The notes under the pieces: generated by a model | Database searches by the model: none | What the model was told of the DNA's origin: nothing | Seen by the model: the letters and a program-made list of their open reading frames with translations, nothing else | Shown here: in pieces, positions 4,252 to 54,011 of the stretch | Position numbering within the stretch: position 1 is the stretch's first letter | How the letters are laid out: the number at the start of each line of letters is the position of its first letter | Made by a program: the position numbers and the translations under genes | DNA from: an uncultured Gammaproteobacteria bacterium | GTDB taxonomy: Bacteria; Patescibacteriota; Patescibacteriia; UBA9570; JBBTWU01 | Length of the DNA: 64,000 nt | Assembly (NCBI GenBank): GCA_964364425.1 | Contig: CAYIMB010000001.1 | Location: 6,941 to 70,940 of the forward strand | Direction: 5' to 3'

Positions 4252-4258
4252 CTAGCGT

Positions 4259-5011: not shown

Positions 5012-5026
5012 TGGTATACTATCCAC

Positions 5027-9679: not shown

Positions 9680-9684
9680 TTGGT

Positions 9685-24732: not shown

Positions 24733-24736
24733 AGAG

Positions 24737-26242: not shown

Positions 26243-26243
26243 A

Positions 26244-26894
26244 TTAGTCTTCCTTCAACTCACTTAATTTTTCTGTATCTGTGGAGTGCATGAGTGTATT
26301 CATCCGGGCGGTCAACAGAGAGAGAATGGTAATGCCTAAGACCACATCTACCAATAGGCCTAGTTCCACCACCGCCGGTAAGCCTAACGTTGTGGCTATG
26401 GCTAACAAGAATACACCGTTTTCCAAAACTAGAAAGCCAACCATCTGACTCAAAGCTGCGCGTTGTGAAATGACCATCAGGAAGCCCAAGAAGATCAAAG
26501 ACATGGCCACCACCAACTGCCACTCACCATGGGGTGAAATAACTGAAGCAACGGGCTGGACAATAAAGTAGGAGAACACAATCAGTAAGCCGCCAATTAA
26601 GGCGATTGGCGCCGGGTTAATGACCGTTGGGGCTTTCAGGGCCGGTTTCAGACGCTTCAACAACAGGAGCAATCCACAGGGGATAGCCACAGCCTTTACT
26701 CCAATGGTGAGTAAAGCGGTCAGCCACAGGTGTTGTTGTCCTAAGTTCACCGCCACAAGGATGGTAATGATGCCAACTAGCGCGGCCTGTCCAATATATA
26801 AGTAGACTTGTGATCTAAAGATTGGCCTGACCAGCATGATCAAGGTAATAAACAGAACTAAACCGGTAAACCATTGAATAAAGTCAGTTATCAT
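26244..26894 (-). CDS. HyfE-like small membrane subunit
   Basis: 216 aa, polytopic, in the position of hyfE between the HyfC-like and HyfF-like genes. Confidence 0.6.
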   Translation of the reverse strand: MITDFIQWFTGLVLFITLIMLVRPIFRSQVYLYIGQAALVGIITILVAVNLGQQHLWLTALLTIGVKAVAIPCGLLLLLKRLKPALKAPTVINPAPIALIGGLLIVFSYFIVQPVASVISPHGEWQLVVAMSLIFLGFLMVISQRAALSQMVGFLVLENGVFLLAIATTLGLPAVVELGLLVDVVLGITILSLLTARMNTLMHSTDTEKLSELKED

Positions 26895-27838: not shown

Positions 27839-29925
27839 ATCGTTTTGGCTAACAACAGGAGAGCAATTAACGCCAGCATCATGTAAGTGAGGTAACTATA
27901 GATGTGACCGGATTGTACTTTTTTTACGGAGTTGCCTAAGCGAATGGAAAACCGGGTGATGGGTCTGACCACATAGTCATCAAAGAAGGCCAACGTGTGG
28001 ACTGAATATGAACGGACATGCCAGAAGTAAAAGTTATCCTGCCCTTTGGTCACATGGACTTGTTCTTTAGGACGCAAGAAATAGCGCAAGGCATGCCGCA
28101 CAGGGCTGGTAAACCCAAGGCCTGAATATTGCATGCGTTCATTTAGGGGAGAACCGCAATCCCAAGACGGGCCTTTGACCACTCTGTTTTTCCCTCCCAC
28201 TAATTTCAAGATAATCCAAGCCAGTAGCATCAAGCCAAGCAGAAATACCAGAACCGTCCAAGCGCTGTTTCCAAATGAGACTGTTCCAGTGAGCTGTGCT
28301 TGATAGCTGAGGGTGGTTAGTGGCTCCAGTAGGTCAATAACGTTTGATCCAGCCGCTTGTTTTGTGATCCCCCAAAATTTAGGTAGACGTGCCAGTGTAT
28401 CTAGGACCTCACCCATGCCAAGCGAGATGCCTAAGGCACCTGCCGCCAAGACCAGCATAGAAATACGCATAGACAAAGGAGTTTTAGCCGGTGTAGGAAT
28501 ACCAGCGTCATGGGGTGTCCGGTTCCGGCCTAAGAACACAATTCCAAACATACGGGTGAAGACCACAAAGGCTAAGCCTGCGGCAAAAGCCAGGGCTCCT
28601 AAAATAAGAGGAAAGATAAAGCGCGCTCCCATACTTCCGGTCATAAAACCCTGTAACAACGTTTGTAGCATGAGCCACTCAGAGGCAAATACGCTGAGTG
28701 GAGGAAGGCCCATTAACCCAATTGCACCAACCAAGAAGATCATGGAAGTCAGAGGCAATACTTTGGCCACCCCACCTAGTAAATCCATAGACCTGGTGTG
28801 GAAGGAAAAATACACACTCCCCGCACCCAAGAATAATAACGATTTAAGCACCGCATGATTTACCGTATGCAGCAACGCAGCAATAATTGCTACGTGGGCA
28901 ATGGCCGGTTTCCCAATTGAGGTAAAATACATAGCCGCACCCAAGCCAATAAAAATAATTCCAATATTCTCTATAGAAGAGAAGGCTAAGGCTTTTTTCA
29001 TGTCGCGGCGTTCAATGGCATAAAACACGCCCACCAAAGCAGAAATTCCACCTAAGGCCATGACCAACAGCCCCCACCAGGGAGACATGACTTCCAACAT
29101 GCTTAAACCAAATACGCGGAAGAAGCCATACACCGCTACTTTTAACATCACTCCGGACATCAAGGCGGAAATATGCGACGGGGCTTGTGGGTGTGCTTCC
29201 GGCAACCACATATGCATGGGGACTAAGCCGGCTTTTGTTCCGAAGCCTAAAACTAAGAGGATAAAAGCAAAGGTGGCCATGCCCGGGGTCAGAAATCCGC
29301 CCACGCCCGTCCAATCGTTAAAAAACAGAGATCCGCTGTTATATGAGAAAATAATAAACACGGCCATCAAGAATGCGGTGCCAATCTGCGTCATAATGGC
29401 ATAGATAAATCCGGCTGGTCGGGCTTTGGCGTGGGAGTGTTGGTACACCACCAGCGCAAACGAAGTGAGCGCCATGATTTCCCAGGCAAATAAGAAAGTA
29501 AGAGCATGGGAGGCCACTAAGACCAAGGCCATAGACGCAATAAACCAGTTGGTCATGGCTCCTAGCCAGCCAAGACTATGGTGGCCAATATAGAGCTTGG
29601 CGTACCCAATTCCGTATAAGCTAGTAACAGCGGCTATACCACCCAGAAGTAGCAAAAATAGGCCAGAAAAGGCATCTATATGGATAGATCCTTGGCCAAA
29701 AATGAGGAAATAGGGAAGAGAAAAGGCTTTGTCTTGAGCGGCTTGATGTAAGGCTGTATATCCAACCAGAGCTAAGACCACGCCTCCTACCACGCCTCCC
29801 CAACCACTCACCCAGCGGGACAACACTTGGGCACGGCTACATACCAAAGCAAACGCCCCAGACGCCACTAAGATGCCTAGACTGGTGGTAAAAAGTGCCA
29901 GATTTGAGCTCCCAACCTGTATCAT
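27835..29925 (-). CDS. NuoL / HyfB-like antiporter-type membrane subunit
   Basis: 696 aa, about 17 TM helices, antiporter-family core. Confidence 0.8.
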   Translation of the reverse strand: MIQVGSSNLALFTTSLGILVASGAFALVCSRAQVLSRWVSGWGGVVGGVVLALVGYTALHQAAQDKAFSLPYFLIFGQGSIHIDAFSGLFLLLLGGIAAVTSLYGIGYAKLYIGHHSLGWLGAMTNWFIASMALVLVASHALTFLFAWEIMALTSFALVVYQHSHAKARPAGFIYAIMTQIGTAFLMAVFIIFSYNSGSLFFNDWTGVGGFLTPGMATFAFILLVLGFGTKAGLVPMHMWLPEAHPQAPSHISALMSGVMLKVAVYGFFRVFGLSMLEVMSPWWGLLVMALGGISALVGVFYAIERRDMKKALAFSSIENIGIIFIGLGAAMYFTSIGKPAIAHVAIIAALLHTVNHAVLKSLLFLGAGSVYFSFHTRSMDLLGGVAKVLPLTSMIFLVGAIGLMGLPPLSVFASEWLMLQTLLQGFMTGSMGARFIFPLILGALAFAAGLAFVVFTRMFGIVFLGRNRTPHDAGIPTPAKTPLSMRISMLVLAAGALGISLGMGEVLDTLARLPKFWGITKQAAGSNVIDLLEPLTTLSYQAQLTGTVSFGNSAWTVLVFLLGLMLLAWIILKLVGGKNRVVKGPSWDCGSPLNERMQYSGLGFTSPVRHALRYFLRPKEQVHVTKGQDNFYFWHVRSYSVHTLAFFDDYVVRPITRFSIRLGNSVKKVQSGHIYSYLTYMMLALIALLLLAKTI

Positions 29926-38150: not shown

Positions 38151-38159
38151 GTGGGAAGT

Positions 38160-41100
38160 ATGGAAAAAATCTTAGACGGTCTGAATTCAGCTCAAGCCGA
38201 AGCGGTGTGCCACCGGAATGGTCCATTGTTGTTGGTGGCCGGAGCGGGGACGGGAAAAACGACAGTCATTACCAGGCGCTTGGCCAAGCTCATTCAGGAT
38301 GGGGTGGCTACTCCTGATCAGGTATTAGCTCTGACCTTTACTGACAAGGCAGCGGGTGAGATGGAAGAGCGTATAGATACTTTGATGCCCTATGGGTATA
38401 CAGATTTATGGGTATCTACATTTCATTCTTTTGGAGAACGTTTGCTCCATGAGTATGGGCTGGACATAGGCCTGCCGCATCAATTCAAATTGTTGAATCA
38501 AACGGATCAATGGTTACTCTTGCGCGAACATATTGAGGAATTGGGCCTGGAGTACTACCGGCCAAAAGGCAATCCGACCAAATTTGTTGAAGCGTTATCT
38601 CACCATTTTTCTCGTTTGAAAGATGAGATGATTACACCGGAGCAATATGTGGAATATGCAGAAAAGTTGTGTCTAAACTTAGACGCAGAAGTTGCGCGGA
38701 CAAAACAAACCTTAACAGATGAAGAACGGGCAGGTGCAGATGAAGCCATACGTATTCGCGAGTTAGCCCACGCCTACCATGTATATCAACAGTTATTACT
38801 GGCAGAAAACGCTTTAGACTTTGGTGATCTGATTTTCCATACCGTGCAGTTACTAAAAAAACGTCCGGCTATTTTAAAAAAATTGCGTGATCAATTTCGC
38901 TATATTATGGTAGATGAGTTTCAAGATACCAACTTGGCACAATACGAGCTGATCAAGTTAATTGCTTCACCTAAAAATAATTTGGTGGCCGTGGGTGATG
39001 ATGACCAATGCCTCCCGGTAGGAACAAAAGTAACCATCCCCGGCGGAGAAAAAAGTATTGAGAGCATTAAATCTGGCGATGTGGTTTTGACTGCAGTCGG
39101 GAAAGGAAGTTTGAGCACTTCCGTAGTTTTAGCCTGTTCAAAAAAGAAAAAGACTTCAAGATTTCTTACATTTCAACTAGAAGATGGTCATTCATTAACT
39201 GCTACAGATAATCACAAGCTTTTTTGTTACGTCCCAAGAATTGATCAAGGGGGTAGAACCTATGTTTATGTGATGCATAGTTCATTGTTTGGGTGGAGGA
39301 TTGGAATAACAAATGATTTGGCCACCAGGTTATCTTTAGAAAGGGGTGCTGATAAAATTATAGCTTTACGCTCATTTTCTGATCCAGATGAAGCGAAGTT
39401 CTATGAAATACTGTGGGTTCTGCGTTATCAAATTCCGCCTGTTTGTTTTAAAGAAAGAGAGGGGGTAGCCATTAAGGGGGAATGGTTGAGTCGTCTATAC
39501 CATGAAATAGACACTGAAAAGAATATACAAAAGTTAGCAAAAGATCTGAGGGTAGATTTGCATAGTCATCATGTTGGTTTAGATAGTGTCAATAGAGGTC
39601 GGGGCAAGCGGCTAAAGATTCATTTTAAACTTTGCTATAGAAGTCATAAAATAAAAGGGAGGAATGATTCGATTCTATCTCAACCCCTTGTTCAACATAT
39701 AGTTGAGTTCCAAACTTCCCAATTAGACATCATCCGGAAATTAAAGTTAGCGGGAATTGAAACTCAGAAAGCTAAAAAAGGAATCAGGATCAGAAAGGCA
39801 GGTGTTGACTTAACTGTATTAGAAAACTTTGCACAAAAGGTTGCAGAGATTACAACAGGCTACATTGAATACTCTTTCGATGTCGGGAGAGTAAATATAC
39901 AATCTAAAAAAGCTTTATGTATGCCAGCAGGGAATGTTGTGATTGGTCATTTTTTGCCCGTACAAGTTAAAAATCATATTGAGTATAAAAAGGTTATTGC
40001 TATTCAAGAAAAAGTTACTACGGAGAATGTATATGATTTGGAGATTGCCAGAAGTCACAACTTTTTGGCTAATGGAGTAGTAGTACATAATTCGATTTTC
40101 AAATGGCGTGGAGCATCCGTGTCTAATATTCTGCACTTCCAAAAAGATTTTCCAAACCTGAAGCAAATCGTGCTCACAGAAAATTACCGGTCAGGGCAAC
40201 CTATTCTGGATTTAGCCTACCAATTCATTCAGCAAAATAATCCGGACCGTTTGGAATCAAAACTAGAGATTCAAAAACGGTTGGTGGCTAAGTCAGGACG
40301 TGAGGGAAAGGTATTTCATTTGCGCAGTATGACCGGAGAAGGTGAGGCGCATACTATTGTGAGAAAGATTGCGGAGTTGAAACAGGAACATCCGGACTGG
40401 ACCTGGAGTGATTTTGCCGTTTTGGTTAGGGCGAATGATCATGCGGAAAGTATTTTACCGTTGTTGGAACGGGCCAACATTCCTTACCAGTATGTAGCTT
40501 CCACGGGATTATTTTTGAAACCGCTTATGTTGGATATTTTGTCGTATTTGCGCGTGGTGGAAAATGTGCATAACAATTTGGCTTTGTACCGCGTGCTGAC
40601 CATGCCCATGTGGAAGCTGGCGGCAGAAGATGTGATGGCAGTGTTGAATTACACTGCCCGCAAACCGGTGGGGATGTTGGACACGCTGAAGAACTGTCGA
40701 GCCATTGGGGGCCTGAGCGTTCCAGCGTGTGTGACCATAGAACGCATGCTTTCACTCATGGCCCAGCACTCCCAATTGGTGCGTGAAAAACATGCGGGAG
40801 AGGCGGTCTTGAAGATTGTTCAAGACGTTGGATTGATGAAATGGATGACGGATCAAGAGGAACAGAAGGCGGCACAACATTTGGTCTTACTCAACCAATT
40901 ATTCCAACTGATCGCCTCGTTTGAACAAAGTGCTGAGGATAAGCGGGTTAAATACTTTCTACACAACGTAGATTTAATGCTTGAGGCTGGGGATGCTGGT
41001 GCACTGAAAGTAGATATTGATGAAGGGCCGGAATCAGTTAAAGTCATGACGGTACACGCTTCCAAGGGTCTGGAGTTTCAAGCCGTATTTGTCACCAATC

Positions 41101-42182
41101 TAGTGGATAAACGATTTCCTTCAGTTGGTCGGAACGAACCTATTTCTGTTCCGGATGATTTGCTCCAAGAAATTTTACCCACCGGGGATGCGCATCTTCA
41201 AGAGGAACGTCGTTTATTTTATGTTGCCTGTACCCGGGCTAAACAATACTTATTCCTTACCAGTGCGGAAGATTACGGTGGTATGCGGAAGAAAAAACCC
41301 AGCCGGTTTTTAGTTGAATGTGGATTGGCTGAAGTCAAAGCTGAACCAACCGGCGTGGTGGCCTTTGCAGCGCAAGATCAGGCCATTCCTGCGGAACGCG
41401 CTGTGGTGTTGTCGCATGCCCCTGAGACGTTTAGCTTCTCCCAATTTGAGGCCTATGAACGCTGTCCCTGGCAATACCGGTACCGGTTTGTCCTCAAAGT
41501 ACCGGCCCCCGGAAACTACTCAGCTTCCTTTGGTCGTAGCGTGCATGACACCTTGTTGGAGTTTTTTAAACGTGTGCGGTCTAACACAGAAGCCTCACAG
41601 GGCACGTTGTTTGGTCCGGCGGAAAAACTTACGCTTCCCACAGACAAAGACCTCCTCCAAATTTTTGAAGACAAATGGCAGTCTGATTGGTATGCTACAC
41701 CCAAAGCTGAACAAGAATATAAAGAAGCCGGTCGTAACGCCTTAAAAGAGTTTTACAACATCCATCATCAGGCCTGGCCCAAGGTGAAGTATTTGGAAAA
41801 AGGATTTTCTTTGCGTCTAAAAGACGTCACGGTGAAAGGTAAAATTGACCGGGTAGATGGAGTGGGAGATTCAAAGGTTCAGGTCAATGTGGTGGATTAT
41901 AAAACTGGGCGGTTCAAAGAAAAGAAAGACTTCAACCAGTTGTTTATTTACGCCATGGCCATTCAGGACGTGTTTAAAGAAGAACCGCAACAGGTTGGAT
42001 ATTATTTTATTGAAGAAAATAAACCTTTGGATAAACCGGTGACTCAGCAGGCCTTAGACAAAACGCGTGATTGGGTGCTGAACCTAGCTGAGCAAATTCT
42101 GTCCGGCGACTTTACGCCCTCCCCAGGCCAGCAATGCCAATTTTGTGATTACCGCTCCATTTGTGAATTTAGAGCGGTTTAA
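38160..42182 (+). CDS. UvrD/PcrA-family helicase fused to a C-terminal Cas4/AddB-like PD-(D/E)xK nuclease with a Cys cluster; interrupted by an intein
   Basis: Walker A motif GAGTGKT, motif II DEFQD, motif III VGDDDQ/SIFKWRGA split by the intein, C-terminal VVDYKTG nuclease motif and C...CxxCx5C cysteines. The ATG at 38160 is preferred over the GTG at 38151. Confidence 0.85.
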   Translation: MEKILDGLNSAQAEAVCHRNGPLLLVAGAGTGKTTVITRRLAKLIQDGVATPDQVLALTFTDKAAGEMEERIDTLMPYGYTDLWVSTFHSFGERLLHEYGLDIGLPHQFKLLNQTDQWLLLREHIEELGLEYYRPKGNPTKFVEALSHHFSRLKDEMITPEQYVEYAEKLCLNLDAEVARTKQTLTDEERAGADEAIRIRELAHAYHVYQQLLLAENALDFGDLIFHTVQLLKKRPAILKKLRDQFRYIMVDEFQDTNLAQYELIKLIASPKNNLVAVGDDDQCLPVGTKVTIPGGEKSIESIKSGDVVLTAVGKGSLSTSVVLACSKKKKTSRFLTFQLEDGHSLTATDNHKLFCYVPRIDQGGRTYVYVMHSSLFGWRIGITNDLATRLSLERGADKIIALRSFSDPDEAKFYEILWVLRYQIPPVCFKEREGVAIKGEWLSRLYHEIDTEKNIQKLAKDLRVDLHSHHVGLDSVNRGRGKRLKIHFKLCYRSHKIKGRNDSILSQPLVQHIVEFQTSQLDIIRKLKLAGIETQKAKKGIRIRKAGVDLTVLENFAQKVAEITTGYIEYSFDVGRVNIQSKKALCMPAGNVVIGHFLPVQVKNHIEYKKVIAIQEKVTTENVYDLEIARSHNFLANGVVVHNSIFKWRGASVSNILHFQKDFPNLKQIVLTENYRSGQPILDLAYQFIQQNNPDRLESKLEIQKRLVAKSGREGKVFHLRSMTGEGEAHTIVRKIAELKQEHPDWTWSDFAVLVRANDHAESILPLLERANIPYQYVASTGLFLKPLMLDILSYLRVVENVHNNLALYRVLTMPMWKLAAEDVMAVLNYTARKPVGMLDTLKNCRAIGGLSVPACVTIERMLSLMAQHSQLVREKHAGEAVLKIVQDVGLMKWMTDQEEQKAAQHLVLLNQLFQLIASFEQSAEDKRVKYFLHNVDLMLEAGDAGALKVDIDEGPESVKVMTVHASKGLEFQAVFVTNLVDKRFPSVGRNEPISVPDDLLQEILPTGDAHLQEERRLFYVACTRAKQYLFLTSAEDYGGMRKKKPSRFLVECGLAEVKAEPTGVVAFAAQDQAIPAERAVVLSHAPETFSFSQFEAYERCPWQYRYRFVLKVPAPGNYSASFGRSVHDTLLEFFKRVRSNTEASQGTLFGPAEKLTLPTDKDLLQIFEDKWQSDWYATPKAEQEYKEAGRNALKEFYNIHHQAWPKVKYLEKGFSLRLKDVTVKGKIDRVDGVGDSKVQVNVVDYKTGRFKEKKDFNQLFIYAMAIQDVFKEEPQQVGYYFIEENKPLDKPVTQQALDKTRDWVLNLAEQILSGDFTPSPGQQCQFCDYRSICEFRAV
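39009..40091 (+). mobile_element. Intein (361 aa) in helicase motif III
   Basis: Begins with Cys directly after VGDDDQ, has a block-B TxxH (TATDNH), and ends VVVHN followed by Ser. The extein halves rejoin to the canonical GDDDQSIFKWRGA. Confidence 0.8.
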
Positions 42183-42220: not shown

Positions 42221-42814
42221 ATGAAAGAATCAAGACGATTAGCTCGCGTAGGTATGGCAGCCTTGGGTTTAGCAGCCGCCGGTGCGCCCGGTCAGGCAGA
42301 AGCCGGTATCACTCATAAGAAACCCGGAATGGAAACACACCAAATAGCTGATGTGGTTGCTCCGGTTGACCATGAAACCAGAAAGCTCATGGAAAAATGG
42401 GGCATTGATTTTAATGGCAGAGAAATTCGGTTGAAGCTTGATCCTAGAGATGACGGAAGACCCTTGGTCGCCGGAGAACCAAATGCTGTTGTACAAGTTT
42501 CACATGTCGGAAATGACAAAGTTGTATTCCGTTTTGTTGAGCGTGATGGGGGAGTTGGATCAGTCTCTATTGTACGAGGATATGAGGCAGGTTCATTTGA
42601 ATTCGATTTGAATGTCAGTCAAGGCCACCCACGTAGTGGGTCCGTTGAACAAGGGCTTGGTAAGCATACCTATGGAGAGTACGGAAAGGTTCGAGTGTTT
42701 GGGATGCATACGCATAAACCACCGTCTGATCCTGGAATGAAATGGTATTATCATAACCCTAAAGGAGAAGAGAAAGAGGGTTGGTGGTACCAGGCGCGTG
42801 AGGGCTCAAGATAA
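42221..42814 (+). CDS. Hypothetical secreted protein (197 aa) with C-terminal GMHT...PGMKWYY...G..WY motif
   Basis: N-terminal signal-like sequence (SRRLARVGMAALGLAAAGAPGQAEA). Confidence 0.6.
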   Translation: MKESRRLARVGMAALGLAAAGAPGQAEAGITHKKPGMETHQIADVVAPVDHETRKLMEKWGIDFNGREIRLKLDPRDDGRPLVAGEPNAVVQVSHVGNDKVVFRFVERDGGVGSVSIVRGYEAGSFEFDLNVSQGHPRSGSVEQGLGKHTYGEYGKVRVFGMHTHKPPSDPGMKWYYHNPKGEEKEGWWYQAREGSR

Positions 42815-42840
42815 AATCCAAATCAGTCTATAATCAGCAG

Positions 42841-42864
42841 AACGCCCGCTCCTGGGCGTTTTTG
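42841..42864 (+). terminator. Rho-independent terminator
   Basis: Reads AACGCCC-gctcct-GGGCGTT followed by TTTT. Confidence 0.65.
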
Positions 42865-42986
42865 ATGTGACTTATACTGTTTTTTTGGGTATATCAGGCC
42901 TGACCCCTTGATTTTATATCGATTTTCAGCTATTATCTCTGGCCATCATGGAAGGAATTCCGTGCTCTGCAACCCAGGAGACTCCC

Positions 42987-43244
42987 ATGTTGCAACCCCT
43001 CATGTTTCTTGTCCTCGTCATGGGGCTGTTCGCCGCCCCGTCCACCGCCAACGCCCGGCCGCCCAAGCACCACCAGGCGGCGGCGAGTCACCACGTCCGC
43101 GCCTACGGCCACCACCGCCCGCCCCCGACCCGCATCTACGGCATGCACACCCCGCTGCCCATCCCGCCCGCGGGCATGAAGTGGTACTACAAGGACGGGT
43201 CCAAGGGCCACTACTGGTACCTGGCCCCGGCGCCGGCCTACTAG
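42987..43244 (+). CDS. Small secreted protein (85 aa), paralog of the C-terminus of 42221-42814, encoded with near-100 % GC3 codons
   Basis: AGGAG Shine-Dalgarno 6 nt upstream of the ATG. Signal peptide MLQPLMFLVLVMGLFAAPSTANA, His-rich middle, C-terminal GMHTPLPIPPAGMKWYYKDGSKGHYWY. Confidence 0.6.
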   Translation: MLQPLMFLVLVMGLFAAPSTANARPPKHHQAAASHHVRAYGHHRPPPTRIYGMHTPLPIPPAGMKWYYKDGSKGHYWYLAPAPAY

Positions 43245-43375
43245 GGCCAGCCTGTCCAGCCCACATCCCGCTGCACCTTGCCATGTTGCGGGTCGAATGG
43301 AGCTTCTTCGGAAGCACCTTCGGCCCGCACCTCGTCTCTCTTTTCAAATATACAACAAACCTTTATCATGCCTCC

Positions 43376-45577
43376 ATGCAAGACCAAGTCATTCTCAAAT
43401 TACGCTTTCCCTTTGAAGACGCTTTGCGAGACCCAGTTGAACGTGTGGGAAAATTTGAGTCATTTTTTTACAACGTGTTTCATTTGATGCTCAAGCGCGG
43501 TGAAGTCATGTCATTTGAAATTGTGCAGATTAACGGGATCATGGATTTTTATATTGTGGCACCACGTATTTTGGTTCCCGCAGTACAATCTTTTCTGTAC
43601 GGTGTGATGCCAGATGCTTCTATTGATGAAGTGCAAACCTATGAACACCTTGATGCACTTCCATCTCAAGCCGTTGGGTTTCACCCGCGCTTAAAAGGAA
43701 GTGAAGCCTTCAGCTTACGATCATTCCGTTCCTCAGCCGGGGATCCGTTAAACGCATTTTTTAATTTACTGTCGGCTGTCCCTTCAACCGACGCAGTGTT
43801 TTATCAAGTCTTAGTCCGCACCATTGACGAGTCTTTAACTGGAGAAGAGGGGACAAGTGTGTATGGCTTTACAGAAAAACAAGAAACGGAAGAAGCGAAA
43901 CCAAAGTTCAGCACCACGGTGCGTATGTTGTACTTTCCTCAAGACGCTGAAGATATTAAAACGCGTAGCTTGTCATTTGAAAACGTGTTTAGCCCATTCT
44001 CTACAGAACACAATCATATTGAAGTACAAACCGTGGCCAACATTCAACAGTTTGTAGATGAATATTTCCGGCGCACAGAACAGGCGACTGGTGTGTTTAC
44101 CACAGAAGAAATCGCGTCCTTTTTCCACTCACCGGATCCAGCCGCAAAAATCCGTGGTGTGAACTGGTTGTATTCAAGACGAGCTGAACCACCTATGAAT
44201 CTGCCTTCCTTGAAGAACTGTGAGGAAGATGAATTGTCCATGTTTGGTGAAACCAACTTTCGCGGTCAGCAATTAGAATTTGGAGTGAAGCGGGAAGACC
44301 GTAGACGGCATTTGTATATTGTGGGTAAGAGCGGTACGGGTAAATCGAAGTTATTGGAGAAACTGATTAGTGACGATATTAAGGCAGGTAAAGGGGTGTG
44401 CGTCATAGACCCGCACGGTGACTTGATTCAAGCCTTGTTGTATCACATTCCGCAAGAACGCGTAGAGGATTTGGTGTATTTTAATCCTGCGGACTTGGAT
44501 TTTCCCATTGCGTTTAATCCCATTGCCAACGTGACCCGAGAGTTCAAGCAACAGGTGGCGCAAGGCATGATTGAAATTTTCAAGAAATTTTTTGGTGCGG
44601 ACTGGAGTCCCAAGATTGAACACGTGTTCCGCTTTACTGTTTTGGCCTTGTTGGATTATAAGAAAGCCACGTTGATGGGTATGCAGAAAATGTTGACCGA
44701 CCGACCATACCGCCAAAGTGTCATTTCAGAAATTCAAGATCATGTGGTTAAAAAATTCTGGGCCAATGAATTTTCTAGTTGGTCAGAAAAATTTGATAAT
44801 GAAGCTATTGTGCCTTTGGTGAACAAATTAGGACAGTTTTTGGCAAATGAGATGGTGCGCAACATAGTCTCACAAACTCAAAATAAGATTGACTTTGATG
44901 ATATTATGAATAACCAACGGATTCTGTTGGTTGAATTATCTAAAGGAAAATTGGGTGAAGAGAATTCTGCTTTACTTGGTTCTTTGATTATCACCAAGAT
45001 TGAACAAGCTGGTATGGCACGGGCCTTTGTTTCGGCTCAAGAACGTAAGGACTTCTACCTGTATGTAGATGAGTTCCAAAATTTTGCCACCAAAACGTTT
45101 GATAACATTTTGTCTGAGGCCCGTAAGTATAAACTCAACCTCACCATCTCACATCAATACTTAGGACAACTCTTAAGCTCTACCCGTGAGACGGTGTTTG
45201 GAAACGTTGGTTCTATTATTACTTTCCGTTTAGGCGCAGAAGATGCCGGATATATTGCCAATGAGTTTACTCCACGCTTTACGGCCTATGATGTGATGAA
45301 CCTATCTGTACGAGAAATGTACGTCAAAATGTCCATTGCTGGTGTAGTGGCGCCGCCTTTCTCGGCTCGTACCATGAATGTAGAAGACCCAGAATTTAAT
45401 GAGACCATGCACAATCGTCTGATTGAAGCTTCCCGGAATAAGTATGCAACCCCACTGGCTGAGGTGGAAGCTGAGATTGCCGGAATTGATCAGATAGTTG
45501 TCAGTTCTAATGGAACGGGCAAGCTGGCGGCGCAAGCGGAGTCAACAGATACCGTATTTGAGGCACCTCTGGTGTAA
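43376..45577 (+). CDS. VirD4/TraG-like (AAA_10 superfamily) coupling-type ATPase with no N-terminal TM anchor (alternative start at 43283)
   Basis: Walker A motif VGKSGTGKSKL, VIDPHGD, Walker B motif LYVDEFQNF, and the TISHQYLGQL motif (Q-S/H-x-x-QL). No hydrophobic N-terminal helices. Confidence 0.6.
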   Translation: MQDQVILKLRFPFEDALRDPVERVGKFESFFYNVFHLMLKRGEVMSFEIVQINGIMDFYIVAPRILVPAVQSFLYGVMPDASIDEVQTYEHLDALPSQAVGFHPRLKGSEAFSLRSFRSSAGDPLNAFFNLLSAVPSTDAVFYQVLVRTIDESLTGEEGTSVYGFTEKQETEEAKPKFSTTVRMLYFPQDAEDIKTRSLSFENVFSPFSTEHNHIEVQTVANIQQFVDEYFRRTEQATGVFTTEEIASFFHSPDPAAKIRGVNWLYSRRAEPPMNLPSLKNCEEDELSMFGETNFRGQQLEFGVKREDRRRHLYIVGKSGTGKSKLLEKLISDDIKAGKGVCVIDPHGDLIQALLYHIPQERVEDLVYFNPADLDFPIAFNPIANVTREFKQQVAQGMIEIFKKFFGADWSPKIEHVFRFTVLALLDYKKATLMGMQKMLTDRPYRQSVISEIQDHVVKKFWANEFSSWSEKFDNEAIVPLVNKLGQFLANEMVRNIVSQTQNKIDFDDIMNNQRILLVELSKGKLGEENSALLGSLIITKIEQAGMARAFVSAQERKDFYLYVDEFQNFATKTFDNILSEARKYKLNLTISHQYLGQLLSSTRETVFGNVGSIITFRLGAEDAGYIANEFTPRFTAYDVMNLSVREMYVKMSIAGVVAPPFSARTMNVEDPEFNETMHNRLIEASRNKYATPLAEVEAEIAGIDQIVVSSNGTGKLAAQAESTDTVFEAPLV

Positions 45578-45604
45578 ATCGAACTGGTCTGATACTGTTT
45601 TGGC

Positions 45605-47359
45605 ATGTCCACTTGCCAAAATTGTCATACGAATTTTCCTATCACGCAGCGTGAAGCGGACTTTCACGCCCGCTTATCTGTTCCAGCCCCAACTTGGTGT
45701 TTTGAATGCCGTTTGCAACGGAAAATGATGTTCCGGAATTATCAAAACCTATCTCGTCAGAAGTGCTTGAAGTGTGGGAAAGAAATAATTTCCATGTTTT
45801 CTGAACAGAGCCCAGTCACGGTCTGGTGTTCAGATTGTTTTGTTTCGGACACTTGGGAGGCCCAAGACTTTGCGTTGGAGGTTGATTTCTCAAGACCATT
45901 TTTATCTCAAGTCCGTGAACTGATGCAGACTGTTCCTCAACAACATTTGAACCAAAAGCAGAATGAAAATAGTCCTTGGAACAACCACCAAAGTCAGAGT
46001 AAAAATTGTTACATGAATTTTGGTGGAATAGCTAATGAAGATGGAGCTTACAACCATTGGTCTGGCTTCACAGCCAACTGTTTGGATAACTATGCCCTGC
46101 TGAATTCACAGGTCTGTTATGAAACAAACTTAGTGACTGAATGTTACCAAACATTTTTTTCCCATTTTGTTTTTAACTCGCATGAAGTGTATTTTTCTGA
46201 AAATTGTTTTAACTCTTCCAACATCATTGGCTGCTTCAATTTAAAAAGTAAATCGTATCATATTATTAATCAACCGGTGGCTCCGGATGAATTTAGACAA
46301 GAATTGAAGAAACTCCGCAGTTACGCCTACCAGCAAGAGTTCAAACAACGGTTTTGTGCTTTCAAGCTCACTCAACCATATCCTGCCGTTCACCATGTGG
46401 CCACCACTGATTCTACCGGCGACTATTTGGTCCGGAGCCATAATAATGTCAACATTTTTACTGCGGTTGAAGTTCAAAATTGCACTAATGCCTTCAGTGT
46501 TGGCTTTATAAAGGATTGTATGGATATGTTTTCCAGTAGTTTGGGGACGGAGTTATGTTATGAGTATGGTGGTGATGGCCAGAAATGCTATAAGGTACTT
46601 TTTTCTTTTGATTGTGAACAATCTCAGGACTTATTCTATAGCTATCATTGTTTTAATTGCTCTGATTGTTTTGGCTGCGTTGGTCTGAAAAATAAACAAT
46701 ATTGTATTTTGAACAAGCAATATAGCAAAGAGGAGTACCAAGCGTTGCTGCCAAAATTAAAACAGCACATGGGTAATCTCCCATATACAGATGCCAAGGG
46801 GAGAGTCTATCCGTTTGGAGAATTTTTTCCGGGAGAACTCTCGTCTTTTCCCTATAATGACAGCATTGCACAAGATTTTTATCCCCTCACGGCTGAACAA
46901 GCTCAAACACAAGGCATGAGATGGCGGCCAGAAAAATCAGCTCAGTATACTCCAACCGTTCAAGCCACTAACTTACCAGATCAGATTGACCAGGTACCAG
47001 ACTCCATCTTAAAAGAGATTATAGCCTGCGAACATGAAGGAACCTGTAGTGACCACTGCACCCGGGTGTTTCCTATTATTCCCATGGAGCTGGAATTTTT
47101 GAGAACCTACGGGATGCCCCTGCCTCACCTCTGCCCAAATTGTAGACACATCAGGCGGGTGAAACAAAAGAACTCTATGAAACTGTGGGAACGAGCATGC
47201 CAATGCGCTGGCACCACTAGCCAAAGCAAAGCCTACCAGAACCAGGTTGCTCATGATCATAGGGCTTCCGCCTGTCCGCGCGTGTTTTCCACCACCTACG
47301 CCCCAGAACGGCTGGAGATGATTTACTGCCAAGAATGCTACCAGGCGGAAGTGGTCTAG
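45605..47359 (+). CDS. Cysteine-rich repeat protein flanked by zinc-ribbon-like CxxC pairs
   Basis: CxxC pairs at both termini. The centre is a ~11-13-aa periodic C-[YF]-x-N/x ladder (NCYMNF, NCLDNY, VCYETN, ECYQTF, NCFNSS, GCFNLK, NCTNAF, DCMDMF, LCYEYG, KCYKVL, HCFNCS, DCFGCV). Confidence 0.55.
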   Translation: MSTCQNCHTNFPITQREADFHARLSVPAPTWCFECRLQRKMMFRNYQNLSRQKCLKCGKEIISMFSEQSPVTVWCSDCFVSDTWEAQDFALEVDFSRPFLSQVRELMQTVPQQHLNQKQNENSPWNNHQSQSKNCYMNFGGIANEDGAYNHWSGFTANCLDNYALLNSQVCYETNLVTECYQTFFSHFVFNSHEVYFSENCFNSSNIIGCFNLKSKSYHIINQPVAPDEFRQELKKLRSYAYQQEFKQRFCAFKLTQPYPAVHHVATTDSTGDYLVRSHNNVNIFTAVEVQNCTNAFSVGFIKDCMDMFSSSLGTELCYEYGGDGQKCYKVLFSFDCEQSQDLFYSYHCFNCSDCFGCVGLKNKQYCILNKQYSKEEYQALLPKLKQHMGNLPYTDAKGRVYPFGEFFPGELSSFPYNDSIAQDFYPLTAEQAQTQGMRWRPEKSAQYTPTVQATNLPDQIDQVPDSILKEIIACEHEGTCSDHCTRVFPIIPMELEFLRTYGMPLPHLCPNCRHIRRVKQKNSMKLWERACQCAGTTSQSKAYQNQVAHDHRASACPRVFSTTYAPERLEMIYCQECYQAEVV

Positions 47360-47417
47360 GGAAAATCGAAACACCCAATCCTTCCCAACTTAGCTAAAAA
47401 TCAGTATAATTTTTGGC

Positions 47418-47858
47418 ATGTCTTTACCCCGTTTTTTGTTTTTCACCGCAGTTGGTACGCTGGTGTGTATATTGGCCTGGTTGTTTGTGTTGTTTTTTAT
47501 AGATCCGACTCAGGGTGGGGCCATTGGACCCACATTATTTTTCATCAGTCTCTACTTAAGCGTATTTGGAATATTTCTCTTGATTGGCTTCTTTATCCGC
47601 TTAATCATTCACAAACAAGAGCCTCCCTTCCACCATGTTGCTATCTCCTTGCGCCAATCCTTTTGGCTCGCTACTCTGCTGGTACTCTCCTTAATCCTCC
47701 AGTGGAACGGTCTATTTGAATGGTGGATAGGAGTCCTGCTAGTTATAGGCTTCTCTGTACTTGAAGCATTTTTCCTCTCCCGGGCTGTGGATAAACGTTC
47801 CAAGCGTCGTCCAGTCCATCACCCTCAATCCCACGAAATTGAACACCCAGTCAACTAA
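47418..47858 (+). CDS. Hypothetical 4-TM membrane protein
   Basis: Hydrophobic helices; TATAAT 9 nt upstream of the ATG. Confidence 0.5.
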   Translation: MSLPRFLFFTAVGTLVCILAWLFVLFFIDPTQGGAIGPTLFFISLYLSVFGIFLLIGFFIRLIIHKQEPPFHHVAISLRQSFWLATLLVLSLILQWNGLFEWWIGVLLVIGFSVLEAFFLSRAVDKRSKRRPVHHPQSHEIEHPVN

Positions 47859-47859
47859 T

Positions 47860-48879
47860 ATGTACGAAAAAGAAATAGAACAAGCCAAAGAGCAATTGCG
47901 AAAAATTGATTCCCCGCAGACGTTGGAAGAGTTTCGTGTGAGATGGTTGGGACGCAAAGACGGCATGGTGACCCAAGCCATGAAGAAGATTGCTGAGTTG
48001 CCAAAACAAGAACGGGCGGAGGCGGGGCAGTCAGCAAATCGATTTAAAAGTATCATTGAAACCGAATTTGAGTTAGTCAAACAACAACTGGAGCAAGCCA
48101 CGCACAAACAAACGGTGGTAGACCCAACCTGGCCAGGAACAGTTCCACCCTCTGGCTCCATTCACCCGGTGACTCAAATGATTTTCAAAATCTGGGAAGT
48201 GTTCTCTGATATGAATTTTAAAATCTGTGAGGGTCCTGAAATAGAAACAGACTGGAACAACTTTGAAGCGTTGAATGTCCCAAAGCATCATCCAGCTCGG
48301 GATATGCAGGATACCTTTTATACCCCAGGCGGATTTTTGTTGCGCACACATACCACGGCAACGAACGCAAGGGTCATTCTTGGGGAACAGAGAAAGTCAC
48401 CGATTCGGATTTTATCAACGGGTAAATGTTACCGGCGTGATTCTTCCTTGCGGCATAGTCCTATGTTTCATCAATTTGACGGGGTGATGATTGATAAGGA
48501 TATTTCAATGAGTAACCTCAAGTGGACTTTAGAAGTTGCCTTATCAAAGACATTGGAGCAGGAGATAAAAGTTCGCTTACGCTATTCATATTTTCCGTTT
48601 GTTGAGCCTGGAGCAGAATTTGATGTGACCTGTACCATTTGTGCCGGCTCAGGTTGCGCGGTATGTAAGCACTCAGGTTGGTTGGAATTAGGTGGTTGCG
48701 GCATGTTGCATCCTAATGTGTTGCGTAATTTGGGCTTGGATCCAAAAGAAGTGCAAGGATGGGCCTTTGGATTCGGGATTGAGCGGCCTATGATGATTAA
48801 ACACCGTATTCCAAACATCCGCCTCTTCTTTGATAATGACCCGCGCTTCTTATCTCAATTTCAAGCACCATCTGTATGA
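47860..48879 (+). CDS. pheS: Phenylalanyl-tRNA synthetase alpha subunit
   Basis: Class II motifs (FRxxYFPFxEPGAE). The ATG at 47860 is preferred over the ORF-track start at 47761. Confidence 0.9.
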   Translation: MYEKEIEQAKEQLRKIDSPQTLEEFRVRWLGRKDGMVTQAMKKIAELPKQERAEAGQSANRFKSIIETEFELVKQQLEQATHKQTVVDPTWPGTVPPSGSIHPVTQMIFKIWEVFSDMNFKICEGPEIETDWNNFEALNVPKHHPARDMQDTFYTPGGFLLRTHTTATNARVILGEQRKSPIRILSTGKCYRRDSSLRHSPMFHQFDGVMIDKDISMSNLKWTLEVALSKTLEQEIKVRLRYSYFPFVEPGAEFDVTCTICAGSGCAVCKHSGWLELGGCGMLHPNVLRNLGLDPKEVQGWAFGFGIERPMMIKHRIPNIRLFFDNDPRFLSQFQAPSV

Positions 48880-51254
48880 AAGTAATTCAATCTTGGTTAG
48901 CTGATTACATCCTACGCTTCAATATCTCACCTGAAAAATTGAGCGCTTTACTGACGGCGCGAGCGGTGGAGGTGGATGAAGTCCTTGATCTCAAAGATAA
49001 ACTTCAATCCATTGTGGTGGGAAAAATTCTGACCATGGAAAAGCATCCAAATGCTGCCCGTTTACGCGTGGCTAAAGTCAGTCTTGGAGCTAAACGGTTA
49101 TCTATTGTATGTGGTGCGCCAAATATATACGCCGGAATGTACGTGGCTGTGGCTCAACCCGGTGCTCATGTGGTGGATATGCAGAGCGGGGAGTGGAAAC
49201 AACTTGAGGCAGCCACTATCCGTGGTGTAGCCAGTGAAGGGATGATTGTGGGAGCAGATGAGTTGGCTTTGGCGACTGGAGCAGCTGCGCAGAATGAACG
49301 ACTGGTCATGGACTTAACTGAGGTGGCAAAAGATACTCACGTAGGGAAATCAATTGTCTCTGTACTAGATGTTTCCCCGGTATACGACTTGGATGTGTTG
49401 GCCAATAGACCAGACTTGATGAGTCACCGCGGTGTGGCCAAAGAAATTGCAGGCTTGTTGAAATTGAAATATACCGAACCAACGTTGTCGCTTCCAAAAG
49501 CACGTAGTAAAAAAGCCCCAATCACCATTCAAATTCAGGCTAAACGGTTAGTTCCACGGTATGCTGGCTTGGTGCTGAGTGGAGTGAAGTTTCAACCGTC
49601 ACCACTCTGGATGCAACACCGATTGCGTCGTGCTGGCATTAGGCCAATTAATCTGGTCGTAGATGTGACCAACTACGTTATGTTGGATGTGGGGCAACCT
49701 CTGCACGCTTTTGATTTGGACAAAGTGGTGAAATTCATGAGAGTGAGAGAGTCTAAAAAAGGGGAGAAGCTGATGACTTTAGATGGCAAGCAACATGAGC
49801 TTCCACCGGGAGCTATAGTGATTGAAGATGGTAGCGGTTTGATTGATTTGGCTGGAATTATGGGCGGACAGTCCAGCATGATCACTGACCAAACTCAAAG
49901 AATTTTCATACAAGCAGCGGTGTTTAGTCCTGAACGTGTGCGCATGACTTCTCGGGCACTGGGACACCGCACAGAAGCTTCAGGTCGATATGAAAAAGGT
50001 GTTTCACCAGTATTAGTGGATCAAGCCTTACAACTGGCCTATGACTTATTGCACCGCCTGATGCCATCCGTGCAGTTGGAATCTATGGTTGATATCAAGC
50101 AGCCGGTCAGTGCTCCAGTGCAGGTTGTTATACGCACAGCTAAAACCAATTCACTCTTGGGCTCTAGAGTCACCCCTCAACAGATTGAAACAGTCATAAA
50201 GACTTTAGGGTTTACTGTATTGAAGAAAACCCAAGATAGTTTAAAGGTTCGTCCACCGCTCCACCGCTTAGATGTGAAGATTGAAGAAGACGTGATTGAA
50301 GAAGTTGGACGCTACATGGATTATAACTCCTTGCCTAAAACCGGACCTGTCCTACAACTTGAACCAGCCCCAACTACAGACGCCATTCGTTTGCGGCCAA
50401 TGATTTTTTCTACACTGGCTACTGCAGGCTGGACTGAAGTGATGCAGTTGTCGTTCACCAATGCGCAGCATATAAAACTTACCGGAAAGACGGAAAAGGA
50501 ATATATGCGTCTGGTCAATCCCATGAGCGAAGATCAAGCATTCATGCGTTCTGAGTTGTTGTCTACGTTAGTTACTTTGGCCAAGAAACACCTACGTCTA
50601 GGAACTACTCCAAAAATCTTTGAACTCGCCAAGGTATTTATTGCCCAGGGAACAGACTGGGCAGAAATTCCGCACCTGGCTGGCATGACTGTAGGCAAAG
50701 ACAGCTTTGCTCAGGTAAAGGGGGGTGCTGAGGCGCTACTGAAACGCCTACATATAGACCAAGTAAGGTTTGAACCAGCAACTCACTGGGCTTTTTATCC
50801 AGATACTTGTCTCAGTCTTAAGCTCGGAAAGGAATCAATAGGAACTATTGGCCAAATTAATCCAGAACTAGCTAAACAACTAGGAGTAGATCAACCTTGT
50901 GCCGGGTTTGAGTTATCTTATGATCAACTTATTCACTTAACTTCACCTCGCTTTGCTTATCAAGATATCCCAGTCTTCCCCAACATCATTTTAGATATTT
51001 CAGTGATCATTCCTGAGAACATCCAGTGGAAAGCGGTAGAAGAAGTGGTGCGGAATTTCGGCGGGGAGTTTTTATCTGAAGTAAAACCTTTTGATATTTA
51101 TACTGGAGATCCCATTCCGAAGGGTAAAAAGAACCTCGCTTTCAGGGTAGAATTTCAGGCCAAAGACAGAACGTTGGAGATGTCGGAAGCGGAAAACGCC
51201 AGAACTCAAATTGTGGCCCAGTTGAACCAAAAATGGGGTGCAAATTTGCGCTAA
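48876..51254 (+). CDS. pheT: Phenylalanyl-tRNA synthetase beta subunit
   Basis: tRNA-binding N-terminus, B3/B4 and B5 domains, 792 aa, overlaps pheS by 4 nt. Confidence 0.9.
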   Translation: MKVIQSWLADYILRFNISPEKLSALLTARAVEVDEVLDLKDKLQSIVVGKILTMEKHPNAARLRVAKVSLGAKRLSIVCGAPNIYAGMYVAVAQPGAHVVDMQSGEWKQLEAATIRGVASEGMIVGADELALATGAAAQNERLVMDLTEVAKDTHVGKSIVSVLDVSPVYDLDVLANRPDLMSHRGVAKEIAGLLKLKYTEPTLSLPKARSKKAPITIQIQAKRLVPRYAGLVLSGVKFQPSPLWMQHRLRRAGIRPINLVVDVTNYVMLDVGQPLHAFDLDKVVKFMRVRESKKGEKLMTLDGKQHELPPGAIVIEDGSGLIDLAGIMGGQSSMITDQTQRIFIQAAVFSPERVRMTSRALGHRTEASGRYEKGVSPVLVDQALQLAYDLLHRLMPSVQLESMVDIKQPVSAPVQVVIRTAKTNSLLGSRVTPQQIETVIKTLGFTVLKKTQDSLKVRPPLHRLDVKIEEDVIEEVGRYMDYNSLPKTGPVLQLEPAPTTDAIRLRPMIFSTLATAGWTEVMQLSFTNAQHIKLTGKTEKEYMRLVNPMSEDQAFMRSELLSTLVTLAKKHLRLGTTPKIFELAKVFIAQGTDWAEIPHLAGMTVGKDSFAQVKGGAEALLKRLHIDQVRFEPATHWAFYPDTCLSLKLGKESIGTIGQINPELAKQLGVDQPCAGFELSYDQLIHLTSPRFAYQDIPVFPNIILDISVIIPENIQWKAVEEVVRNFGGEFLSEVKPFDIYTGDPIPKGKKNLAFRVEFQAKDRTLEMSEAENARTQIVAQLNQKWGANLR

Positions 51255-51285: not shown

Positions 51286-54011
<2,726 letters not shown>

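Follow-up and report, generated by a model that had tools for sequence, protein, structure and literature searches.

A soluble coupling-protein-like ATPase and its cysteine-rich partner in a probably composite gene block of Patescibacteria

Patescibacteria are ultra-small and represent a large part of bacterial diversity, and for the majority of their conserved genes no function is known. We analyzed a 64,000-nt stretch of a patescibacterial genome (GenBank assembly GCA_964364425.1, contig CAYIMB010000001.1, positions 6,941 to 70,940), hereafter the window, and within it a block of genes at positions 42221–47858. A preliminary description had counted five consecutive same-strand genes here, and five plus-strand open reading frames (ORFs) do precede pheS (47860) and pheT. 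In order, they encode two small proteins with signal-like N-termini (g1 and g2), an ATPase resembling type IV coupling proteins (T4CPs), a cysteine-rich protein (hereafter the Cys protein) and a small membrane protein. The five had been taken together as a single export or adhesion system. Our analysis indicates that the block very likely consists of four separate units rather than one system: g1, an insert carrying g2, the ATPase gene with the Cys gene, and the membrane gene with pheST. The ATPase and the Cys protein are the only conserved functional pair of the block and recur across several classes of Patescibacteria; the other three genes are ordinary and lineage-specific. We tentatively prefer to see the pair as a cytoplasmic nucleic-acid motor with a zinc-finger adaptor, and not as an export or adhesion machinery; this mechanism is inferred, and we regard it as possible rather than probable. 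Taken as a whole, from the four juxtaposed units through the pair to the motor and adaptor, the account seems to us about equally likely to hold or to fail.

Conservation of the ATPase and its cysteine-rich partner

Relatives were compared as loci numbered from L001 onward. L001 (NCBI GCA_038062635.1) has no mismatch to the window, and L002, a groundwater contig of the Hainich aquifer from the European Nucleotide Archive (ENA), has 3 mismatches in 13,086 positions and may not be independent of the window. Eighty loci were retrieved with an ATPase alignment and then scanned with a hidden Markov model (HMM) of the Cys family. ATPases with an HMM score of at least 840 are called orthologous, and loci whose ATPase is 86–93% identical to that of the window are called close relatives.

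The ATPase gene (43376–45577, plus strand) encodes a T4CP-like protein of 733 aa, in which an N-terminal alpha/beta domain of about 300 aa is followed by an ATPase domain and by a disordered C-terminal tail, with a conserved F-x-x-P motif (F728, P731) at its very end. Walker A (GKSGTGKS, residues 317–324) and Walker B (D565/E566) are invariant in 20 homologs. Two Pfam families matched above their cut-offs, DUF87 (34.6 bits, cut-off 23.2) and TrwB_AAD_bind (29.5 bits, cut-off 20.5, residues 308–599). NCBIfam models of T4CPs remained below theirs; the best was conju_CD1115 (49 bits against 250), and TraD models reached 43 bits (cut-off 366) and 27 bits (cut-off 648). In an AlphaFold2 model (predicted local distance difference test, pLDDT, 82.5) the N-terminal 300 aa are predicted to be a soluble alpha/beta domain. 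The best Foldseek E-values for this model were those of TrwK/VirB4 (7.5e-13) and HerA (1e-11), with further matches to TrwB, Cagbeta and DotL. TrwB gave the best superposition (target-normalized TM-score 0.62–0.65, root-mean-square deviation about 5 Å, about 410 columns); the TrwK/VirB4 match spans about 870 columns, but with a whole-chain TM-score of just 0.24–0.34. An N-terminal transmembrane anchor is a defining trait of coupling proteins, and no 19-residue window of the 733 aa reaches a Kyte-Doolittle value of 1.6. The earlier label of a coupling-type ATPase is thus apt as far as the DUF87, TrwB_AAD_bind and VirD4-like matches go, but not for membrane attachment. The protein is a soluble P-loop motor of the TrwB/VirD4/VirB4/HerA class, with intact Walker motifs and without a membrane anchor.

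The start of the gene deserves a comment. Homologs begin at M(T/Q)DQVILK, and the window ORF, which is 889 aa long, yields 733 aa from the conserved MQDQVILK start. Homologs do not share the extension back to 42908, and public calls (L002, 10711 onward) are over-extended.

More than 3000 homologs of the ATPase were scored, at 40–93% identity, in Kerfeld-, Uhr-, Magasanik-, Peregrini-, Gracili- and Abawacabacteria, the nearest named ones being from Candidatus Kerfeldbacteria; species-representative genomes held at least 600 matches. Nine ATPase-bearing contigs (L023, L031, L045, L052, L069, L070, L077, L084 and L086) carry the labels Alpha- or Gammaproteobacteria, Chlamydiae, Bdellovibrionales or Bulleidia and are probably mis-binned contigs of Patescibacteria. 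A viral or prophage origin of the ATPase-Cys pair was considered and rejected, as 2.9 million viral contigs contained no relative of the ATPase and one marginal Cys fragment. The window holds no second ATPase of the same class. No component of a type IV secretion system (T4SS) was found among the window ORFs examined, no relaxase or T4SS gene lies nearby, and no VirB3/6/8 gene is adjacent.

Many such genes have been reported. In a recent survey (PMC12102498; Microb Genom 2025), 5,713 T4CP homologues were counted in 2,918 Patescibacteria genomes, only 148 of them near virB4, and the neighborhoods analyzed were those of virB4 only. In S. epibionticum, other T4SS genes were essential for epibiotic growth but t4cp was not, and exaptation was raised by the authors for the patescibacterial T4CP homologues. 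The window ATPase is evidently one of the 5,713 VirD4-type homologues, most of them orphans.

The Cys gene (45605–47359, plus strand) encodes 584 aa with 35 Cys and 19 His, which bears out the Cys richness of what was first called a Cys-ladder protein, but not the ladder as such, and the protein has no signal peptide and no transmembrane segment. Its conserved Cys/His columns are mostly CxxC-type zinc-site pairs at both termini, with a few in the middle of the protein. In the AlphaFold2 model (pLDDT 84.7, predicted TM-score 0.84), zinc-ribbon/treble-clef modules flank two beta-solenoid regions. The family is about 590 aa long and comprises 6431 scored homologs, about 40% identical over their full length; all are unnamed, and every named source belongs to Patescibacteria. 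Fold searches against the PDB and viral structures gave weak left-handed beta-helix and zinc-ribbon matches only, with LpxD as the best beta-helix match in the PDB (E 2.8e-3, match probability 0.16, TM-score about 0.1). Comparing the family profile with PDB sequences gave nothing meaningful, and hexapeptide-repeat Pfam families were absent from the window protein and from 41 homologs. Among 41 family members, zf_Tbcl was found in 6 and zf_Tbcl_2 in 4; the L003 homolog scored 30.8 bits (zf_Tbcl-type, cut-off 27). The window protein itself had no such match. A weak Elf1-like match was also noted for the Cys proteins. The Cys protein is modeled as a cytoplasmic beta-solenoid protein with multiple zinc sites.

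Two local features of the Cys gene may be mentioned. The lowest-GC stretch of the window (46076–46326, 0.31–0.33, at or below -3 standard deviations [sd]) lies inside the gene, in the poorly conserved solenoid region. In addition, a 12-nt start context, TTTTGGCATGTC, is common to the Cys gene (45596–45607) and the membrane gene (47411–47422), which may be chance or a shared initiation signal.

In the window, 27 nt lie between the ATPase and Cys genes, and this gap contains no terminator. Out of 16 assessable orthologous-ATPase loci, the window included, 15 carry between one and nine Cys-family genes within 2.3 kb, mostly directly adjacent to the ATPase gene and placed upstream, downstream or convergently (nine copies in L012, six in L003 and five in L016). 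These loci span Kerfeldbacteria, Peribacteria/Peregrinibacteria, Abawacabacteria and Daviesbacteria. Cys genes were also found at seven loci with a paralogous ATPase (L019, L022, L023, L027, L032, L037 and L060). The preliminary description saw no obvious housekeeping role for any gene of the block; for these two the statement is doubtful, given how widespread both families are in Patescibacteria. De novo clustering of neighboring genes revealed no other family in common with the window, and showed that a TrmB-like winged helix-turn-helix (wHTH) family recurs in the Cys arrays. The TrmB-like genes encode about 250–270 aa and are often divergent to a Cys gene (L090, 9098–21442; also L003, L008, L011, L014–L016 and L060); none is present at window positions 33000–58000.

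The paralog that occupies the slot beside the ATPase differs even between near relatives. A type A protein is found in the window and L004 (55% identical to each other) and a type B protein in L003, L005 and L006; the two types are about 29% identical, compared with 80–93% for their ATPases. In L006 (5145–8497) the Cys gene is tandemly duplicated 3' of the ATPase gene, and the copies are 64% identical. We rejected the existence of a dedicated ATPase-linked Cys subfamily, since the neighbor-joining tree was star-like with ATPase-adjacent copies scattered over it. Linkage of Cys genes to aminoacyl-tRNA synthetase genes, seen at several loci, was judged to be chance in small, gene-dense genomes. 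L089 has an unusual arrangement, with two ATPases interleaved with Cys genes and a dnaJ gene; one of the ATPases (3314–5458) is a variant that lacks the N-terminal domain and carries a zf_Tbcl_2 finger (residues 452–484) and a long low-complexity tail. As a domain-fusion link between the two families it was rejected, because only the short zf_Tbcl_2 finger is common with the Cys family.

We found no report of an ATPase-Cys pairing, nor of the pairing of ATPase paralogs with a HARE-HTH protein described below, and neither partner is mentioned in PMC12102498 as read through term searches. The consistent association of a T4CP-like subfamily with a zinc/beta-solenoid family, and that of its paralogs with HARE-HTH proteins, may therefore be new.

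The remaining genes as probably separate units

The first gene, g1 (42221–42814, plus strand), encodes 197 aa that probably begin with an Ala-rich signal peptide (AEA|G) and carry a C-terminal motif rich in Trp and Tyr. It has no match in Pfam, NCBIfam, PHROG or PADLOC, and only 4 homologs (69–100% identity) were found among 5.8 billion protein clusters. Orthologs lie 3' of uvrD in L004, L005, L006, L092 and L093. We regard g1 as probably a secreted orphan restricted to its lineage, that is, to a group of related species. A 24-nt hairpin (42839–42862, plus strand) follows 25 nt past its stop codon, with a 9-bp stem, a 6-nt loop and a U-run (dG -13.6 kcal/mol, z -2.8). A consensus scan did not list it; its GC-rich stem-loop and U-tract at a gene end mark it as a predicted intrinsic terminator. 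At the same position L004 has a stronger hairpin (-31.9 kcal/mol, z -6.6), and in the sequences of L092 and L093 a GC-rich inverted repeat can be seen by eye. The hairpin had been noticed before, but as the upstream boundary of all five genes; it sits inside the block, between g1 and g2, and leaves only four genes from there to pheS. Because of this position, g1 would be a transcription unit of its own.

Downstream of the hairpin lies a GC-rich island (42970–43340, without strand, GC 0.65–0.73) consisting of g2 and a GC-rich non-coding tail of about 95 nt. In 200-nt windows GC reaches 0.73 here, where the whole 64 kb averages 0.46 (sd 0.044, z=6.1) and the next-highest value elsewhere is 0.61. 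The island is the strongest compositional anomaly of the window; the preliminary description had spoken of the only strong one. The gene itself (42987–43244, plus strand, 85 aa) has GC of 0.64, 0.50 and 0.95 at the first, second and third codon positions (GC1, GC2 and GC3), and GC3 of the neighboring genes is 0.36–0.49. A structured RNA as the source of the island was rejected, as Rfam gave a chance match only (E 0.3) and the GC3 periodicity is that of coding sequence. An AGGAG 6 nt 5' of the ATG makes 42987 the likely start, in preference to 42948. Public gene calls omit g2, and the ATPase ORF there runs upstream over it in another frame, which is why g2 is missing as a protein from large databases.

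The predicted g2 product starts with a hydrophobic stretch resembling a signal peptide, continues through a linker rich in His and Pro, and has in common with g1 a C-terminal motif of about 40 aa, [FY]GMH..P.G.KW.Y...G.WW (BLASTP E=1e-7). It lacks the core domain of g1. The two were first described as secreted paralogs, of which the signal-like N-termini and the common C-terminal stretch stand, but full paralogy does not. An exhaustive HMMER search of 1.84 billion representatives returned no true homolog of g2 (its three matches were low-complexity false hits), and the one relative we recognized is encoded in L006 (E=4e-9). It is puzzling that a compositionally foreign gene encodes the C-terminal motif of the adjoining native g1, with different codons.

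Comparison with relatives clarifies the history of the site. An AT-rich conserved segment on the plus strand (42904–42969) holds a promoter-like TTGATT-17-TATTAT site and is 77% identical to L005 3712–3777, which sits directly 5' of the ATPase gene there; the insert would therefore split the ATPase promoter region from the ATPase. The gap between the g1 terminator and the ATPase gene contains GC-rich DNA in every relative examined, with different contents. L004, L005 and L092 carry a minus-strand Nudix-like gene, L006 carries the same Nudix gene on the minus strand together with the g2 homolog on the plus strand, and the window has g2 only, the Nudix gene being missing. The Nudix-like genes (L004 9096–9692, L005 2896–3612, L006 1410–2123 and L092 4259–4528, all minus strand) show weak Pfam NUDIX matches, with GC of 0.61–0.65 and GC3 of 0.70–0.83. 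The simplest history would be an ancestral insert with both genes followed by differential loss, g2 being a remnant of a small GC-rich insert. A foreign origin of the island is suggested by base composition and codon usage alone. No notable flanking repeats, integrase, tRNA or RNA gene were found around it, nor was a donor: g2 homologs were missing, and 234 pattern matches in metagenome contigs included no relative of the Nudix gene. Of the horizontal acquisition proposed beforehand, the compositional side (GC3 0.95, z=6.1) is confirmed, but neither a mobility signature nor a donor was found.

An abrupt GC jump in a genome of metagenomic origin also raises the question of an assembly chimera, the more so as public contigs of the same genome break a few kb away (around window position 45337–45389). 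The ENA contig L002 also has the island but may not be independent. A homologous GC-rich g2 occurs in the independent assembly L006, and GC-rich Nudix DNA occupies the same site in L004, L005, L006 and L092, four other read sets. Moreover, g2 encodes the g1 motif with different codons, so shared sequence does not explain a join. A chimera is on this evidence barely credible.

At the other end of the block, the membrane gene (47418–47858, plus strand) encodes 146 aa with about four hydrophobic segments by hydropathy, predicted to be transmembrane, in keeping with the small membrane protein first described, and without a family match in Pfam or NCBIfam. Its stop codon (47856–47858) is followed after 1 nt by the ATG of pheS, the start of pheS and pheT (47860–51254, plus strand), which bound the block downstream. 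Of the promoter-like sites in this region, the best one (47382–47410, plus strand, TTCCCA-17-TATAAT, 10/12 matches) lies 8 nt before the ATG of the membrane protein. The 1-nt gap and the promoter-like site just upstream make the membrane gene the likely leader of the pheST operon. Its juxtaposition to pheS is kept in L004 and L006, where the protein is 79–81% identical. In both, a minus-strand gene for a DUF975/UPF0259 membrane protein (L004 14015–14683, L006 8504–9184), missing in the window, splits the Cys gene from the membrane gene.

In close relatives the order is uvrD, g1, GC-rich DNA, ATPase and Cys gene, with syntenic housekeeping flanks as well, and in L004 and L006, whose contigs reach far enough, the membrane gene and pheST come next. 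Beyond them the arrangement dissolves. In L003 (80% ATPase identity) another small membrane gene (85 aa), different from that of the window, comes after the Cys gene, and TrmB-like genes and more Cys genes follow. In L007, a metagenome-assembled genome named as Kerfeldbacteria (68% ATPase identity), the other four families are absent and the ATPase gene lies between fatty-acid-oxidation-type genes and an RNase T gene.

These observations bear on the idea of a five-gene secretion or adhesion module, in which g1 and g2 would be adhesins or substrates, the ATPase the energizer, the Cys protein a structural part and the membrane protein a channel. The common strand and close spacing of all five genes, the signal-like N-termini and common motif of g1 and g2, and the order kept in L004 and L006 are what such a module would predict. 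Yet a terminator follows g1, coupling ties the membrane gene to pheS, L004 and L006 have a DUF975 gene inserted, and L004 and L005 have a Nudix gene in place of g2. Furthermore, synteny is gone at 68–80% ATPase identity, the g1, g2 and membrane families are undetectable elsewhere, and Sec-type signals would need no coupling ATPase. We consider the module very improbable. Synteny and co-occurrence in relatives had been named beforehand as the check on the five genes as a unit; they uphold the ATPase-Cys pair (15/16 loci) and not the rest, as the other three genes accompany the ATPase in near relatives only. Our division into four units follows from the terminator after g1, the coupling of the membrane gene to pheS, the interruption by DUF975, the rarity of g1, the absence of these genes beyond close relatives and the variants of the island.

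A putative nucleic-acid motor and alternative roles

An export or adhesion role is not borne out for the pair either: the ATPase has no anchor, the Cys protein is predicted to be cytoplasmic, and the window ORFs examined include no T4SS component. In the mechanism that we tentatively prefer, the ATPase would act as a hexameric cytoplasmic translocase or remodeler on nucleic acid, and the Cys proteins would be interchangeable zinc-finger adaptors or specificity subunits bringing it to its substrate. Such an adaptor would have parallels in the accessory proteins through which conjugative coupling proteins are served with DNA binding, as well as in a sigma70-r4/HARE-HTH protein that precedes paralogous ATPases. 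We find this role the best supported because both proteins appear to be cytoplasmic, the ATPase belongs to the fold class of DNA translocases and coupling proteins, its paralogs pair with a helix-turn-helix (HTH) protein, and the Cys protein has a zinc-ribbon build. The TrmB-like wHTH genes recurring in Cys arrays, the zinc-ribbon/treble-clef modules and the Elf1-like match are all supportive of a nucleic-acid role, and we count in its favor too the rarity of T4CP homologues near virB4 and the exaptation raised in PMC12102498.

The paralogous ATPases are found in Saccharibacteria and in many other classes in which a separate ORF encodes the N-terminal domain, and they mostly lack Cys neighbors. 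Immediately 5' of them, in 43/69 loci, lies a gene for a Sigma70_r4/HARE-HTH (also DUF3320) protein of about 360 aa (examples occur among L024–L087, such as L024 8611–9711), and in Saccharibacteria loci dprA and topA are found further upstream. The HTH partner and the Cys family hardly ever occur together, and neither the window nor the orthologous loci contain the HTH partner.

Several points weigh against the proposed motor and adaptor. The binding of Cys proteins to nucleic acid and their contact with the ATPase are predictions, and co-transcription of the two genes is suggested by their spacing alone. Seen from the Cys side the link is loose, with 16/51 full-length copies within 400 nt of an ATPase gene and two of three Cys-centered loci without an ATPase within 10 kb; conversely, L007 has the ATPase and no Cys gene. 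Related Peribacteria contribute many of the orthologous loci, which deprives the counts of phylogenetic independence. Only Saccharibacteria show the dprA-topA linkage, and it could be plain synteny. Finally, the beta-solenoids and the turnover of paralogs are left unexplained by an adaptor role, and polymorphic cargo or conflict proteins would fit them equally well.

It is on paralog turnover that the main rival does better. Here the ATPase would be a true type IV coupling protein serving a T4SS encoded elsewhere, and the polymorphic Cys proteins, which lack signal peptides, would be delivered into host cells as its substrates. The export idea of the preliminary description survives most nearly in this form, reduced to two genes. 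It draws on the T4CP sequence and fold of the ATPase, on the absence of Sec signals from the Cys proteins, and on variable Cys arrays beside a conserved motor with non-orthologous swaps in close relatives. T4SS genes in the class ABY1 and variable VirB2 arrays in Patescibacteria, both in PMC12102498, are further precedents, and zinc-finger proteins could work in a reducing host cytoplasm. Against it stand the missing membrane anchor, the lack of a T4SS gene near the ATPase among the window ORFs examined, and two findings of the same survey, namely the 148/5,713 homologues near virB4 and the non-essential t4cp gene of S. epibionticum. Some four zinc sites and two solenoids would also make poor unfolding substrates, many Cys genes lie far from any ATPase and beside TrmB-like regulators, and the paralogous ATPases pair with a DNA-binding HTH protein instead. 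We judge effector coupling to be unlikely.

Similarly, the pair could belong to conflict or defense, as a HerA/FtsK-like ATPase acting with fast-evolving zinc-finger sensors or effectors and wHTH regulators against phage or foreign DNA. PADLOC reported similarity of the ATPase to mad8 (E 2.5e-16) and to HerA models, its structure matches 8xaw and 9c1m, both HerA-partner anti-phage complexes, it is strongly similar to a PHROG of unknown function (E 3.6e-68), and the TrmB-like proteins match CasR wHTH models; Cys paralog turnover in the slot beside the ATPase would fit as well. A known defense system was nevertheless rejected, as PADLOC gave generic ATPase similarity only, matched none of the other four proteins of the block and revealed no cognate partner genes. 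The module lies among housekeeping genes and is absent from viral contigs, and the ATPase is widespread (40–93% identity across classes), unlike patchy defense islands, which makes such a role less likely; we see it as quite improbable.

Returning to the nucleic-acid motor, a bolder version can be drawn for the whole phylum, in which soluble motors derived from coupling proteins, with interchangeable nucleic-acid-binding partners (Cys or HARE-HTH according to subfamily), would form the cytoplasmic DNA-handling arm of a T4SS/competence apparatus. It would serve the acquisition or processing of host DNA by auxotrophic epibionts, with swapped Cys paralogs setting substrate or host specificity. 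We offer this as a conjecture and think it unlikely. Whatever the role, the widespread orphan coupling-protein homologues of Patescibacteria gain concrete partners in the Cys family and the HTH protein. The locus itself is corrected, as its reading as a secretion island was a tempting one, and the unannotated g2 and the over-extended ATPase call in public data are flagged.

Genomic setting and comparison with known systems

The block is embedded in housekeeping genes, with the ATP synthase operon and a uvrD/addB-type helicase on its 5' side and pheST, gyrB, secE-nusG and rplKA on its 3' side. Nine other large ORFs of the window encode tRNA synthetases, a ClpB-like ATPase, a cation antiporter, Mrp/complex-I-like subunits and one cell-surface-type protein. 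The last (5027–6886, 619 aa) has DUF11, CARDB and Ig-like repeats, typical of cell-surface proteins, and is a better adhesin candidate than any gene of the block. A minus-strand cluster at 23143–29925 has genes for two antiporter-like subunits of the Mrp/NuoL type and for a subunit in which complex-I 30 kDa- and 49 kDa-like parts are fused; the cluster is similar to a membrane-bound hydrogenase or an Mrp module, a notable energy-metabolism trait for a Patescibacteria genome. A second, weaker GC peak (10576–10876, 0.59–0.61, just above +3 sd) lies inside the ClpB-like gene (9655–12432). Two genes of the window contain inteins. In the uvrD/addB-type helicase-nuclease (38151–42182), Hint and Intein_splicing matches accompany a length of 1343 aa, against 967–981 aa for the intein-free proteins of L004 and L092, and the intein region forms a low-GC trough (0.33 near 39900). 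In gyrB (51315–54011), Intein_splicing lies between the DNA_gyraseB and Toprim domains, and the longer L004 ortholog (1112 aa) suggests a different intein size.

Like T4CPs such as TrwB of R388, VirD4, TraD, Cagbeta and DotL, the window ATPase has a P-loop domain with an inserted helical domain, and, as in TrwB-TrwA or TraD-TraM, a dedicated adjoining partner gene. Unlike them, it has a soluble N-terminal domain of about 300 aa instead of a membrane anchor, scores far below every curated NCBIfam T4CP cut-off, has no relaxase or T4SS genes nearby, and is chromosomal and conserved across Patescibacteria, not carried on a mobile element. With VirB4 (TrwK) it shares solubility and the order of an N-terminal domain followed by the ATPase domain. 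In contrast to the VirB4/HerA/FtsK class, its sequence profiles favor VirD4/TraG-type families, and no VirB3/VirB6 or NurA-type partner is adjacent. A conserved ATPase beside divergent, swapped tandem paralogs is reminiscent of EssC of the type VII secretion system with its Esx/LXG substrates and of patescibacterial VirB2 pilin arrays; this is an analogy of gene layout, with neither homology nor export evidence for the ATPase-Cys pair. As for the Cys protein, the only PDB matches of its solenoids are, weakly, left-handed beta-helix proteins of the LpxA/LpxD/GlmU kind, but it differs from these acyltransferases in lacking the hexapeptide-repeat signature and a confident fold match. Its family resembles zf_Tbcl/zf_Tbcl_2 treble-clef fingers in the terminal CxxC modules of 10/41 members, and the full architecture of 590 aa has no described counterpart.

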